From IMG/VR virus record IMGVR_UViG_3300044846_003114, positions 67,213 to 131,212 of that record: a stretch of 64,000 nt of DNA; one strand, written 5' to 3'. Numbering within the stretch: position 1 is the first letter of the stretch; each line of letters begins with the position of its first letter. The stretch comes from a virus. Its lineage: Duplodnaviria > Caudoviricetes. The translations under genes and the position numbers were made by a program. Under the pieces are notes generated by a model. It worked only from the letters and a program-made list of their open reading frames with translations, was not told the origin of the DNA and searched no databases. Shown in pieces: positions 51,363 through 60,281 of the stretch.

Positions 51363-51772
51363 TGGTGGAGGTGACGGGACTCGAACCCGTGTCTTTCCTG
51401 TTCAACAATAAATGACTACACGTTTATTCTGTTAGTTCACAACAGACAAATATTTGGTTCCTATTTTGACATCGTTACCAACAACTGTGTCGAGTTCACT
51501 TTTGTTACGGTAGCCCTCTGAACGAGACCGTTTGTTTCTTTTTGGGTAGAAACCACACCTTGAGTACTTCTGTTCCTAGGTTATATGTACGTCGACCCGA
51601 TTGTAGTTTCGCCTTAGGCTACTGCTACGTTAGAAGTTGCAAGAATACCTGCTACTTCCATGTTGTTGTAAACGTTGCCGTCTAAAATTTTCCACCGTAG
51701 ATTTAAGTCATAGATGAAGTCTGACTACGTGCCACTTACCCCTGATACCTGAAATCAATGCCAGGCACCCCC
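51363..51772 (-). ncRNA. ssrA: tmRNA
   Basis: 5' GGGGGTG / CACCTCC-ACCA acceptor with G3:U70, T-arm GGGTTCGAGTCCC, tag frame 51679-51614 encoding GNVYNNMEVAGILATSNVAVA*. Confidence 0.92.
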
Positions 51773-53621: not shown

Positions 53622-53756
53622 AATATCAAATATAAGTAAAATTTATTATAATGCAAAAAAAAAGTCAGAATAAATCTGACTAATCTTTTTGGGCCGAACG
53701 GTTTTAAAACGTTCCAATTCCACCACTTTGTTTTACTAAACAAAGAAAAAAAAAAC

Positions 53757-54553
53757 ACTGAGAATACATGTTTTAACAATTGACTTAGGGACATTATTTG
53801 ATTCTTCCCTTTTCCACTACCTTTTGAGTAGTACCAATCAGCGGCGGTCAATTAGATTAACCAATCCTTAAGTCGTTATATACTCTTTTAATACTCATTA
53901 CTCATCAAAGATGCCTCCCTGATTCAACCTTGCGGGTTTAGAGAACTTTTTTAAAAATCACATTGGGCTTGAGACCCTTTGTGGCCGTGAACCCCTCACG
54001 ACTATGTAGCCACCTGTCTACAACGACTGACGAACACTTTTTCTTGTTATGTTTAAGTTGTTAAACCGTAATTAACAAAATTTAGTTTCCGAATTTGGGA
54101 AAGTAGTGGTTCGTCGACCAGCCAAGCCACCTTTTGAGCGACTCGATACTAAACTACTCTCTGTAACATCCCTGCTACCATATTTTTGGACCCCTTCAAA
54201 ACTAAACTCTTGGTAGAGTTTAATAAAGGATGATAACGACACCACTCGTACTTCACCATACCTTTCGGTTTTAAGATTCCCATCATATTGAATCACGCAA
54301 TTGTAAAGTTGGATAACGATACTTCTCACAATAACTCTATGGATTATTCTTATTGGTGTTCCCACCTCAACCAAACAACTCGGATTGCTTGGTCATCAAA
54401 CCACTTTCCCTAAAGTGTTACCCTCAGTACTTAAGGTTCAACGATACTCCACTTGCCTACTCGAGTTCCATTTCTGAAACCGCAACTTACCCCAACCAAG
54501 GGTTTGTCACTTTATCCCACTTTCATGGTTTATTTTGTTGACCATAGGCGGCC
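53757..54553 (-). ncRNA. ~800-nt large structured RNA, GOLLD-like
   Basis: no convincing ORF; GC-richer than flanks; many hairpins (ACC GAAA GGT, AACC CGCAA GGTT, CTAC TCAAAAG GTAG); own promoter (54594) and boxA-like site; terminator at ~53655-53681; next to tRNA cluster. Confidence 0.6.
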
Positions 54554-56899: not shown

Positions 56900-57017
56900 A
56901 TTTTGTTTTTCCAATACATCAAAGAACCATAATTCAAATATAATAAAAAAAAATGATATAAAAAAACCCCGAACAATTTTTTTAGTTTGTTCAGGGTTCT
57001 AACTTAACTAAAAATTT

Positions 57018-58569: not shown

Positions 58570-58613
58570 ACTTATTTTGTTATTATAAGATTTTTCTTAG
58601 TTGTCACTTGTTG

Positions 58614-58686
58614 AGCCCAAAGTCAGACTCGAACTGACGACCTGCTGATTACAAATCAGCTGCTCTACCAACTGAGCTATTCGGGC
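58614..58686 (-). tRNA. tRNA-Thr (TGT)
   Basis: GCTGA-TTTGTAA-TCAGC. Confidence 0.92.
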
Positions 58687-58751
58687 TTGTTTCTTTCACA
58701 AAGATAATAAATATATATGAATATACAAAATTATTTGTAAAAATATTTTAG

Positions 58752-58822
58752 TTGCGGGGCCGGTAGTCGAAACCGGAAAAAGACACAGCTTATGAGACTG
58801 GTCGGGTACCCTCCTCCCCGCA
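58752..58822 (-). tRNA. degenerate initiator-like tRNA-Met (CAT)
   Basis: TGCGGGG/CCCCGCA acceptor, CTCATAA loop, shrunken D-arm and atypical T-loop. Confidence 0.6.
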
Positions 58823-58883
58823 ATAATAACATTTTTTTGCTCACTAACATTTTTTTTGTTAGTGTACATTTTTTTTGTTAGTG

Positions 58884-58954
58884 TTGTCCCTCGTGGATTC
58901 GAACCACAACTAGATGGACCAAAACCACCTGTACTACCGTTATACTAAAGGACA
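58884..58954 (-). tRNA. tRNA-Gln (TTG)
   Basis: GGTGG-TTTTGGT-CCATC. Confidence 0.9.
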
Positions 58955-58959
58955 ATATG

Positions 58960-59039
58960 TACCCAAGGTCGGACTCGAACCGACACGCCTTTCGACACGG
59001 TTTCTAAGACCGCTGTGTATACCATTCCACCACTCGGGT
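58960..59039 (-). tRNA. tRNA-Leu (TAG)
   Basis: GCGGT-CTTAGAA-ACCGT. Confidence 0.92.
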
Positions 59040-59046
59040 ATTATTG

Positions 59047-59118
59047 CACGCATGTAAGGACTCGAACCTTCATCTTCGGTTTTGGAGACCGAAATTCTAC
59101 CAATTGAACTACACACGC
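59047..59118 (-). tRNA. tRNA-Trp (CCA)
   Basis: TCGGT-CTCCAAA-ACCGA. Confidence 0.9.
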
Positions 59119-59124
59119 GTTTTG

Positions 59125-59196
59125 CGTTGATGATAGGACTCGAACCTATAATCGTTCGGTTAACAGCCGAAAGCTTCACCATTAAGCTACATCAAC
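59125..59196 (-). tRNA. tRNA-Asn (GTT)
   Basis: TTCGG-CTGTTAA-CCGAA. Confidence 0.92.
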
Positions 59197-59201
59197 AACT
59201 G

Positions 59202-59276
59202 TAGGGTAAAGAGGACTCGAACCTCCATGATACCTTGCTCCCAAAGCAAGTGACTTAGCCATTAGTCCATTACCCT
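59202..59276 (-). tRNA. tRNA-Pro (TGG)
   Basis: CTTGC-TTTGGGA-GCAAG. Confidence 0.9.
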
Positions 59277-59289
59277 ATATGTATAAAAC

Positions 59290-59323
59290 AAAAAACCTCG
59301 AGATTTTTAAGTCCCGAGGTTTT
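59290..59323 (-). terminator. intrinsic terminator (candidate attenuator) directly upstream of the first tRNA
   Basis: AAAACCTCGGGAC-TTAAAAA-TCTCGAGG-TTTTTT on - strand. Confidence 0.75.
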
Positions 59324-59346
59324 CTAATATTTTAAGTTAAACTAAA

Positions 59347-59442
59347 TTAACCAACATCAGTATCATCGAGACATATGTGCATAGGTTGCTCATTCCAATT
59401 TAGTTGGTTTGAAAACGACGTCATGTTTGTTAATTGTCTCAT
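59347..59442 (-). CDS. putative 31-aa leader peptide of the tRNA operon
   Basis: MRQLTNMTSFSNQLNWNEQPMHICLDDTDVG*, downstream of TATCTTTG promoter (~59470) and upstream of the terminator. Confidence 0.55.
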   Translation of the reverse strand: MRQLTNMTSFSNQLNWNEQPMHICLDDTDVG

Positions 59443-59627
59443 TGAATTTAGTTTTATCTTTTTCTCTTACAAAGATAACAATAAATATCTATATAATCAA
59501 GAAAAGTTAATAAAGATTTTTTTTGATTAGTTGCCTGAACGTGATATTTATAAGTGACAAATAAAAAATTATCTCTCTCCTGGCCTTTTTCATATGAAAA
59601 TTGCGGGAGCATTTTAAAAAATTTCAT

Positions 59628-60281
59628 ATGGAAAGAATTAGAACATTATCTCTTAATTTGGGCAATAGATTAGCTCAAGCATTTTTTGTATTAGTTGGGG
59701 TTTGGATTGTATTTGCCCTATGTTTTCAACTATTCTTTGTTTTTTTAGAATTTTCCGGTAGACAAGAAACTGCTACCAAGGTATCAAATTGGATTATGTG
59801 GAGGATTGACGGGACATTCAAAAACTCCCCAGAAAACATTTGGTACGATGCTGATGACCATATTTGGGTTGAAAGTGTAACAAATCAGGTTAAGATTGGT
59901 AAATTGGCTGGTAACAGAAATTTAGCATTTGGAGTTAAAAACATTTTAGAGGAATTTTTACAAGAAAAGGGTTATGATTTATCAGCATCATCTCCATACA
60001 AGTTACAAGTGCAAATTGTTTATTTAGATGTTCTTACAACAAAGAAGAACATATCTGTTTTCCATTCTAATGAGGAAGAGGTGGTTATTAGATTGAAGGG
60101 AATATTGACAAAAGACGGTAAAAAGGAAAAGGAACTTATTGTTGAGGAGTCATCGTCTGAAGTATCGATGTCTACTTTAATTGTTGATGAAGGAGGTACA
60201 TTTAATCAAACTTCTTTAAGTAACGCACTCAAAAAGGCTAGTGAAAAACTAATAAATAAATTAATGGATAAAAATAAATAA
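59628..60281 (+). CDS. membrane-anchored hypothetical protein (CsgG/LptE-like fold possible)
   Basis: N-terminal TM helix; FGVKNILEE.L..KGY...F....S.ALKKA. Confidence 0.65.
   Translation: MERIRTLSLNLGNRLAQAFFVLVGVWIVFALCFQLFFVFLEFSGRQETATKVSNWIMWRIDGTFKNSPENIWYDADDHIWVESVTNQVKIGKLAGNRNLAFGVKNILEEFLQEKGYDLSASSPYKLQVQIVYLDVLTTKKNISVFHSNEEEVVIRLKGILTKDGKKEKELIVEESSSEVSMSTLIVDEGGTFNQTSLSNALKKASEKLINKLMDKNK

Follow-up and report, generated by a model that had tools for sequence, protein, structure and literature searches.

The element discussed here lies immediately ahead of a block of five transfer RNA (tRNA) genes in a 64,000-nucleotide (nt) window of phage DNA (Duplodnaviria; Caudoviricetes), which is the second half of the single contig of 131,212 base pairs (bp), with 33% G+C, of IMG/VR record IMGVR_UViG_3300044846_003114. 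The sequence data suggest, with a probability that we would put at roughly 0.78, that it works as a ribosome-mediated (leader-peptide) transcription attenuator, controlling the phage tRNA block and acting as a feedback sensor of tRNA supply. The evidence is a short open reading frame (ORF) that is open in all related elements, an intrinsic terminator behind it, a candidate antiterminator that would compete with the terminator, and a set of codons in the middle of this ORF that changes with the tRNA genes present. The setting of the phage is a lake and the leader family is common in lake metagenomes, with DNA runs of 18 studies containing the leader stretch, whole or partial. The 12 tRNA genes of the contig, its transfer-messenger RNA (tmRNA) and its GOLLD RNA are all on the minus strand (ARAGORN, Rfam), and the features of the element, with positions in the window, are as follows.

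59470-59501, minus strand: promoter, with a -33-like CTTG (59501-59498), a 20-nt spacer and a -7 box TATCTTTG (59477-59470)
59442-59347, minus strand: leader ORF of 31 codons plus TAA, encoding MRQLTNMTSFSNQLNWNEQPMHICLDDTDVG
59435-59441, minus strand: region 1, TGAGACA, which overlaps the start codon; a speculative partner of region 2 when there is no translation
59383-59436, minus strand: sensor codons 3-20, the first half being CAA TTA ACA AAC ATG ACG TCG TTT TCA and the second half AAC CAA CTA AAT TGG AAT GAG CAA CCT
59366-59372, minus strand: region 2, GTCTCGA, the 5' strand of the candidate antiterminator, within codons 24-26
59324-59360, minus strand: two-tier hairpin H2, with a lower stem of 59360-59353 with 59331-59324 and an upper stem of 59352-59347 with 59340-59335, the stop codon being in the 5' arm of the latter
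59317-59311, minus strand: region 3, TCGGGAC, part of the terminator 5' arm and complementary to region 2
59285-59323, minus strand: intrinsic terminator, with a 12-bp stem (59323-59312 with 59303-59292), an 8-nt loop and a T-run at 59295-59285
58883-59276, minus strand: controlled tRNA block, five genes spaced 3-6 nt apart, all called by both ARAGORN and Rfam
59276-59201, minus strand: tRNA-Pro(tgg)
59196-59124, minus strand: tRNA-Asn(gtt)
59120-59046, minus strand: tRNA-Trp(cca)
59039-58959, minus strand: tRNA-Leu(tag)
58954-58883, minus strand: tRNA-Gln(ttg)

The consensus for Bacteroidota promoters is TTTG-N19-21-TAnnTTTG, and we take the leader promoter to be of this type, on the assumption that it fits that consensus. 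The position of the TATCTTTG box is conserved in nearly all of 44 aligned relatives, and an A-rich untranslated stretch lies between the box and the ORF. H2 is located between regions 2 and 3, and the terminator ends only 8-13 nt from tRNA-Pro. The terminator hairpin with its T-run (59326-59289) ranks top among the 8 terminator-like sites found between 55500 and 60500, for which shuffled sequences give an expectation of 2.7, and the Rfam scores of the tRNA genes behind it range from 53.9 to 71.6 bits. A scan that covered the TAnnTTTG promoter type only found no such motif from 59470 to the end of tRNA-Gln (58883), the next being at 58733 and 58706, ahead of tRNA-Thr. Because there is no further TAnnTTTG box before 58733, the five-tRNA block is apparently reliant on terminator read-through. 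The first-pass annotation of this DNA had proposed a promoter at about 59470, the 31-codon ORF and a terminator before tRNA-Pro, and had seen no room for another promoter before that gene; all of these were recovered on the minus strand, the last for the one motif type scanned.

Relatives were found in two ways. Seeding with the divergent 226-amino-acid neighbour gene (59601-60281) gave 89 loci in IMG/VR, of which 80 were kept, and the small ORF and hairpin are present in every kept locus that has the tRNA-Pro cluster next to this gene. Pattern scans were also used: two ORF-end patterns each returned the same 17 viral stretches, an ORF-end pattern gave 53 stretches in metagenomes, and a structure-anchored pattern, based on the start-codon region, region 2 and the terminator with no requirement for an open frame, gave 36 viral stretches of which 19 were new. 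Pooling of the pattern scans gave 55 distinct related elements, on contigs of viruses and metagenomes. Each of them has an open frame that ends in a stop at nt 91-103; the leaders differ in length only by multiples of three, and the leader unit is invariably directly ahead of a tRNA block. The ends of the leader peptide are conserved in close relatives, and the distant relatives have at least 10 different C-terminal peptides, yet retain GTCTCG, the two-tier hairpin that includes the stop codon, and the terminator. A blastn search of GenBank phages with the 1.1-kb region gave tRNA-to-tRNA matches only and no relative of the leader, and the structure-anchored pattern had 0 matches in GTDB genomes, which hence give no prophage or host clue.

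Some of the distant leaders (L176, L177/L188/L189 and L185) have no TAnnTTTG box in the 60 nt upstream, and three of these have a GGGATTGTACTA-like motif about 45 nt 5' of the start codon. The box-less leaders may use a different, perhaps phage-specific, promoter class.

The conserved leader ORF with codons that co-vary with tRNA content, which the first-pass annotation had looked for in related phages, is indeed present, and the middle of the ORF swaps with the tRNA set. There are two major versions. In class A, to which the leader in the window belongs, the middle is rich in Asn, Gln, Trp and Pro codons, with or without CTA, and the tRNA genes behind it have the order Pro-Asn-Trp-(Leu-tag)-Gln. 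In class B the middle has Phe, Ile, Cys, Ser, Lys, Trp, Ala, Asp, Glu and Arg codons, and the array that follows is Ala-Ile-Phe-Lys-Trp-Arg(acg)-Cys-His-Met-Asp-Ser-Glu, and the 19 sensor codons include at least one that is cognate to each of these 12 proximal tRNA species (P = 4e-6, given codon usage). A third version, found in L136 only, includes Phe, Cys and Trp codons, and the tRNA genes after it are those for Phe, Cys and Trp.

The match extends to individual codons. In class A, a CTA or CTG codon may be at codon 3, 5, 8, 14 or 19, and was seen only in combination with tRNA-Leu(tag) in the first block, the table of the two over 36 combinations being 10/0/0/26. Cys codons occur in only two class A leaders, L140 and L120, which are the two with tRNA-Cys in the array. 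More generally the choice of CTA or TTA for Leu, TCA or TCG for Ser, ACA or ACG for Thr, and AGA or CGY for Arg follows the isoacceptor gene that is present. Over 47 combinations of leader and tRNA set, 506 of the 878 codons are cognate, and none of 5000 permutations reached this figure, either when the tRNA sets were permuted overall (360.6 +/- 18.9) or within classes (482.1 +/- 4.1), figures that are inflated as they ignore kinship, with kin sharing both labels. The varied positions of CTA are a better sign of repeated events than these permutation figures.

Nine distinct class B loci have, in addition, a second leader and terminator ahead of a Leu(taa)-Arg(tct)-Pro-Asn-Leu(tag)-Tyr block. 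The ORF of leader 2, which was chosen by anchoring on the terminator, has 34-36 codons, and the terminator is about 60 nt 5' of the second tRNA block. The codons of leader 1 favour tRNAs found only in block 1 (e.g. 14 vs 3 for block 2) and those of leader 2 favour tRNAs found only in block 2 (e.g. 27 vs 5 for block 1), with Fisher p values for own-block matching of 3.6e-6 to 5e-3. In the window the Pro, Asn and Leu(tag) genes, members of block 2 in class B, are behind leader 1.

Relatives with leader 2 are L127, L123, L129, L130, L144, L149, L156, L158, L163 and L167, and its codons are rich in Asn, Leu, Thr, Arg, Pro, Tyr, Gly, Val and Gln. A TAnnTT(T/A)G-like box and a GTTCTTTGA motif separate its terminator from the tRNA, and from this sequence it appears that the leader 2 unit may have a bypass promoter. 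No second leader was found in the window, where the only strong terminator-like site preceding a minus-strand tRNA is the one studied here, and where the site of leader 2 is occupied by the end of a 161-amino-acid gene. In the window tRNA-Leu(taa) is preceded by a TATATTTG box and GGTTCTTTGA (56919-56942, minus strand); this pair is kept in relatives, following the leader 2 terminator there and the terminator of the 161-amino-acid gene in the window.

The first gene of the class B array is a weak tRNA-Ala(UGC), scoring 30.1 bits against a threshold of 29 in L114 (1736-1805, minus strand). It recurs at this position in 25 class B loci, several of its pairs are non-standard, and ARAGORN does not call it at default settings. 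In the class B arrays of L155, L129 and L148, tRNA-Trp abuts the terminator and the leader retains most codons of the lost tRNAs.

Within the genome under study the codon match can be assessed against codon usage. It had been reported that nine of the ten codons at positions 12-21 specify the amino acids of six tRNAs (Pro, Asn, Trp, Leu, Gln and Met), and this is correct: the chance of a ten-codon window with at least nine such codons is 2.75e-5 given genome codon usage, and the leader is the only one of 422 short ORFs starting with ATG (25-45 codons, six frames, whole genome) to reach 9/10. Strict cognates of the 12 tRNAs called by ARAGORN make up 16 of the 18 sensor codons (P = 1.2e-4) and 22 of all 31 codons (P = 0.0025). 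Of the codons outside the ten that had been said to match tRNAs further downstream, ATA has no matching tRNA in this genome; CCT is also not strictly cognate to anticodon UGG. The leader covers 11 of the 12 tRNA species, which is less striking (P = 0.011), as 6 of the 422 short ORFs do so. It is true that Lys, Tyr and Ala codons are absent, as had been pointed out, but the statement is a selective one, for Phe, His, Ile, Cys, Val and Gly codons are present in the leader despite there being no tRNA for these six amino acids. The evidence from codon matches in this genome alone is moderate.

Turning to the RNA structures, the terminator is paired in every cell in 44 sequences with two pairs altered on both sides, and its core of 8 pairs is paired in 52 of 52 distinct 3' modules, among which pairs 3 and 4 show compensatory states. 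The complementarity of GTCTCGA and TCGGGAC, also seen in the first-pass annotation, gives a candidate antiterminator of 7 pairs, one of them G-U, in the window, and the compensatory change looked for there was found, once: over the 52 modules 361 of 364 cells are pairable, and pair 7 is A-U in 41, G-C in 8 and A.C in 3. The A-U to G-C switch at pair 7 changes Asp to Gly in the peptide, and in L175 the GTCTCGA is retained in a different reading frame. For the antiterminator the informative changes came only from the more distant relatives, alignment A1 being too conserved. As to H2, each of the 35 distinct inter-region segments is predicted to fold into a hairpin, even those quite different in sequence, with a mean z of -2.13, and the stop codon is always within it. 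Spacing is conserved across the 55 distinct elements: the stop is 13-21 nt beyond the end of region 2 and 24-32 nt ahead of the start of region 3.

Synonymous sites give a further indication. For the 226-amino-acid neighbour gene, compared over 12 loci, a single codon is kept at only 4 of 105 columns with an invariant amino acid, and third-position identity is 0.56. In the last 11 codons of the leader the third positions are nearly fixed, save for a Val wobble position (0.32), and this one freely varying synonymous site is the position predicted to be unpaired. Judged from this pattern, and from the varied C-terminal peptides and the frame change in L175, it is the RNA and not the peptide that is under constraint in the 3' part of the ORF.

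In folding of the full-length leaders the terminator is in the minimum-energy fold of 42 of 44 and the pairing of regions 1 and 2 in 39 of 44. Masking of the 5' part, which mimics a stalled ribosome, puts the antiterminator in the minimum-energy fold of all 44, and when instead the 3' arm of the terminator is removed, the free leaders fold either with regions 1 and 2 paired (21/44) or with the antiterminator (23/44). The region 1:2 pairing itself is found in 96.1% of A1 cells.

The mechanism that we propose has transcription beginning a few bases past TATCTTTG, with a ribosome translating the 31-codon leader behind the advancing RNA polymerase. A ribosome that reaches the last nine codons or the stop would melt region 2 and the 5' arm of H2; region 3, thus released, would pair with region 4 to make the terminator, and transcription would stop 8-13 nt short of tRNA-Pro. 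A ribosome held within codons 3-20 would leave region 2 and H2 free, region 2 would pair with region 3, and with the terminator blocked the tRNA genes would be transcribed. The limit at codon 20 is calculated from the standard ribosome footprint, which predicts that an A site at or before that codon leaves region 2 free. The sensor codons are read by the controlled tRNAs, and thus the phage tRNAs made would speed up decoding of the leader, a negative feedback that would match tRNA output to demand. In this scheme we infer that the leader ORF is translated, that the ribosome stalls, which way the switch works, and that ribosome and polymerase are coupled in a Bacteroidota-type host.

A number of observations count against this interpretation. 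In alignment A1 the antiterminator has no double changes and its covariation does not exceed the shuffle control, and that of the whole structure is only weakly above shuffles (38/500); such covariation as there is represents few events among very similar sequences. The antiterminator fold is also easily imitated, in that dinucleotide shuffles sequester at least 7 of the 9 core 5'-arm bases in 110 of 500 trials for the whole upstream sequence and 69 of 500 for the 3' part. The pairing of regions 1 and 2 loses a pair, uncompensated, in relatives that start ATG AAA, and because of this we have downgraded it and treat its place in the model as speculative. Six tRNAs of the window that have codons in the leader are behind other promoters or genes, tRNA-Thr being an example. 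Most sensor codons are single, unlike the codon runs of the his and trp leaders, and sensitivity to a mild shortage is therefore uncertain. There are also mismatches among the relatives: L155, L129 and L148 retain Phe, Ile, Lys and Ala codons with the Ala-Ile-Phe-Lys tRNAs lost, L055 retains Asn and Trp codons without those tRNAs, L164 has CTA with no Leu(tag) within the 533 nt to the end of the contig, L183 lacks CTA in spite of a distal Leu(tag), and His and Tyr codons follow their tRNAs poorly.

We considered folding energy as proof of the antiterminator and rejected it, as shuffles equal it in 14-22% of trials.

The best of the alternatives accepts the same architecture and has it sense general translation capacity or amino-acid starvation, through charged versus uncharged host tRNA, the codon match then mirroring which amino acids matter to the phage. 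The attenuators of amino-acid operons do sense tRNA charging, and the retention of codons for lost tRNAs in L155, L129, L148 and L055 is what one might expect of such a sensor. However the match is at the level of codons and follows the isoacceptor gene present for Leu, Ser, Thr and Arg, and a starvation sensor has no need of two class B leaders in one genome each matching its own block. We consider this explanation improbable.

Still less probable is a switch that does not involve translation, in which the triplets pair with tRNA anticodons in the manner of a T-box, or a protein of the phage or the host brings about antitermination, the open frame being incidental. A choice of terminator and antiterminator together with triplets related to tRNAs would suit an RNA that binds tRNA. 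However none of the 55 elements has a broken frame, start and stop are at fixed places relative to the structures, changes in length are kept in frame, and the stop codon is always inside H2. Further, a T-box reads one specifier codon and not twelve or more, and no Rfam T-box or leader family matches 59280-59480 at E<=1. The remaining alternative, a stand-alone small gene or RNA with a constitutive terminator, its peptide being the product and the tRNAs coming from leaky read-through or an unrecognised promoter, has in its favour that promoter, ORF and terminator make a complete unit and that the ends of the peptide are conserved in close relatives, but is hardly credible given the 10 or more C-terminal endings in distant relatives in which the RNA elements persist, synonymous sites fixed far beyond the level of the neighbouring gene, a variable middle that tracks the tRNA genes, and the constant position of the unit directly before a tRNA block. 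A micro-protein reading was likewise rejected on the variable C-termini and the change of reading frame in L175.

For the attenuator that we favour, the natural trigger could be codons that are rare in the host, host tRNAs decaying as infection proceeds, or a defence system that cleaves tRNAs. A plain homeostat of tRNA supply and demand fits equally well as a sensor of the destruction of host tRNAs. It is also conceivable, and we put it forward only tentatively, considering it on the whole unlikely, that the leader is a many-input OR-gate alarm with about one test codon per tRNA species, such that loss of any host tRNA induces the whole set. Such loss would be by anticodon nucleases, by other tRNA-targeting defences or by the phage's own host shut-off, and the leaders would change one codon at a time, in step with the gain and loss of tRNA genes.

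There are some transcript data. Contigs from three RNA libraries, each from a different study, span the terminator from the leader into or up to the tRNAs (X15 59223-59451; X16 59200-59400; X18 59278-59397 joined to tRNA parts), and none reaches upstream of 59451, a weak hint of a transcript that begins close to the predicted promoter and is able to read through, with the reservation, to be added to the points against, that these contigs are strandless and possibly from DNA in those libraries. The RNA runs are contigs with small shares, from which starts, ends, strand and level are not determinable, and the uncovered segments 59452-59600 and 58702-58871 are uninformative.

Beyond the five-gene block are two further features.

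58751-58822, minus strand: tRNA(CAU)-like remnant, doubtful, called only by ARAGORN with a relaxed threshold
58613-58733, minus strand: next transcription unit, with TTTG-N19-TATCTTTG, the box being at 58706-58699, followed by tRNA-Thr(tgt) at 58686-58613

The tRNA-Thr unit, with its own promoter, is likely to mark the end of the leader-controlled block. Six controlled tRNAs were originally listed, and for Pro, Asn, Trp, Leu and Gln we agree; the Met-like sixth, at 58822-58751, has no call by ARAGORN at default settings and no Rfam tRNA match at E<=1. It aligns to an 88-nt tRNA-Met(cat) of L001 without the long arm of that tRNA, and to judge from this alignment looks like a decayed copy of it. 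In L001 the intact 88-nt tRNA-Met(cat) is immediately after tRNA-Gln. In the window a 19-nt A-rich direct repeat in 2-3 copies (about 58880-58830, minus strand) separates tRNA-Gln from the remnant.

Downstream of the tRNA array in the window and in the same orientation are a full-length GOLLD RNA (53755-54161, minus strand, 308 bits) and a tmRNA with a 21-residue tag (51363-51772, minus strand), a pair also present in L129. A phage tmRNA neighbouring a stalling-based sensor is possibly of interest.

Phage tRNA genes are usually seen as passive cargo that is made constitutively. If our interpretation is correct, the phage measures the speed of decoding and doses its tRNAs accordingly, and the debate on the purpose of phage tRNAs becomes an experimental one, in which one can ask which shortages switch the leader on; L155, L129 and L148 could serve as natural mismatch variants of the model. 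The range of leader-peptide attenuation would also widen, taking in RNA genes whose products act back on the sensor, as well as phages and Bacteroidota-type hosts. Should the OR-gate alarm prove to be right, phage tRNA arrays would be inducible counter-defence modules with a built-in sensor. For annotation, there is reason to retain 30-codon ORFs ahead of tRNA arrays, and for synthetic biology the element would be a compact natural sensor of several tRNA species simultaneously.

With regard to earlier work on phage tRNA arrays, PMC10264068 (eLife 2023) presents the choice between codon compensation and replacement of tRNAs cut by defence systems as still debated, and the purpose of phage tRNAs is also taken up in PMC11555353 (Nat Commun 2024) and PMC11464382 (Nature 2024). 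These papers deal with the same kind of tRNA array as we have here, and it is purpose that they address; a term search of the text of PMC10264068 for attenuat-, leader, terminator, promoter and upstream found none of them. We found no published account of leader-peptide control of tRNA genes in a search that had most subscription journals and supplements outside its range.

Among the known regulatory systems, the T-box riboswitch (RF00230) resembles the phage leader in having a choice between terminator and antiterminator set by the state of a specific tRNA. It differs in that it binds one uncharged tRNA directly and is untranslated, whereas the phage element has a conserved ORF of many codons. 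Neither RF00230 nor any of the Rfam leader families (His, Thr, Trp, Leu and others) matches 59280-59480 at E<=1, and L114 has only partial, sub-threshold matches at the terminator (His_leader 22.6 against 49 bits, Thr_leader 16 against 55). The pheST operon of E. coli, in which the pheM leader brings about attenuation of phenylalanyl-tRNA synthetase, is like the phage leader in that attenuation is applied to the decoding machinery and not to amino-acid synthesis, but it involves one amino acid, a run of Phe codons and a cellular protein-coding operon.

The closest resemblance in form is to the enterobacterial attenuators, which include trpL, hisL, leuL and pheL, and also the multivalent thrL (Thr, Ile) and ilvGMEDA leader (Ile, Leu, Val). 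Shared with these are a short leader ORF with codons for several amino acids and a terminator directly after it; in the phage leader the candidate antiterminator, like those of the enterobacterial leaders, would use the 5' arm of the terminator. In the enterobacterial cases, as proposed for the phage leader, which is known from sequence alone, it is the position of the ribosome that picks the fold. The members known to date control genes for amino-acid biosynthesis or aminoacyl-tRNA synthetases, and the genes behind the phage terminator, being tRNAs, are outside that membership. In contrast to the enterobacterial leaders, the phage leader would control phage tRNA genes and not biosynthetic enzymes, has mostly one codon per tRNA species, for up to 12 species, in place of runs of a single codon, and would operate in a Bacteroidota-type host, without use of Shine-Dalgarno sequences. 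The regulated products would themselves relieve the stall, giving a direct feedback. Thus the architecture is that of known attenuators, and what appears to be new is the use of tRNA genes as its targets.

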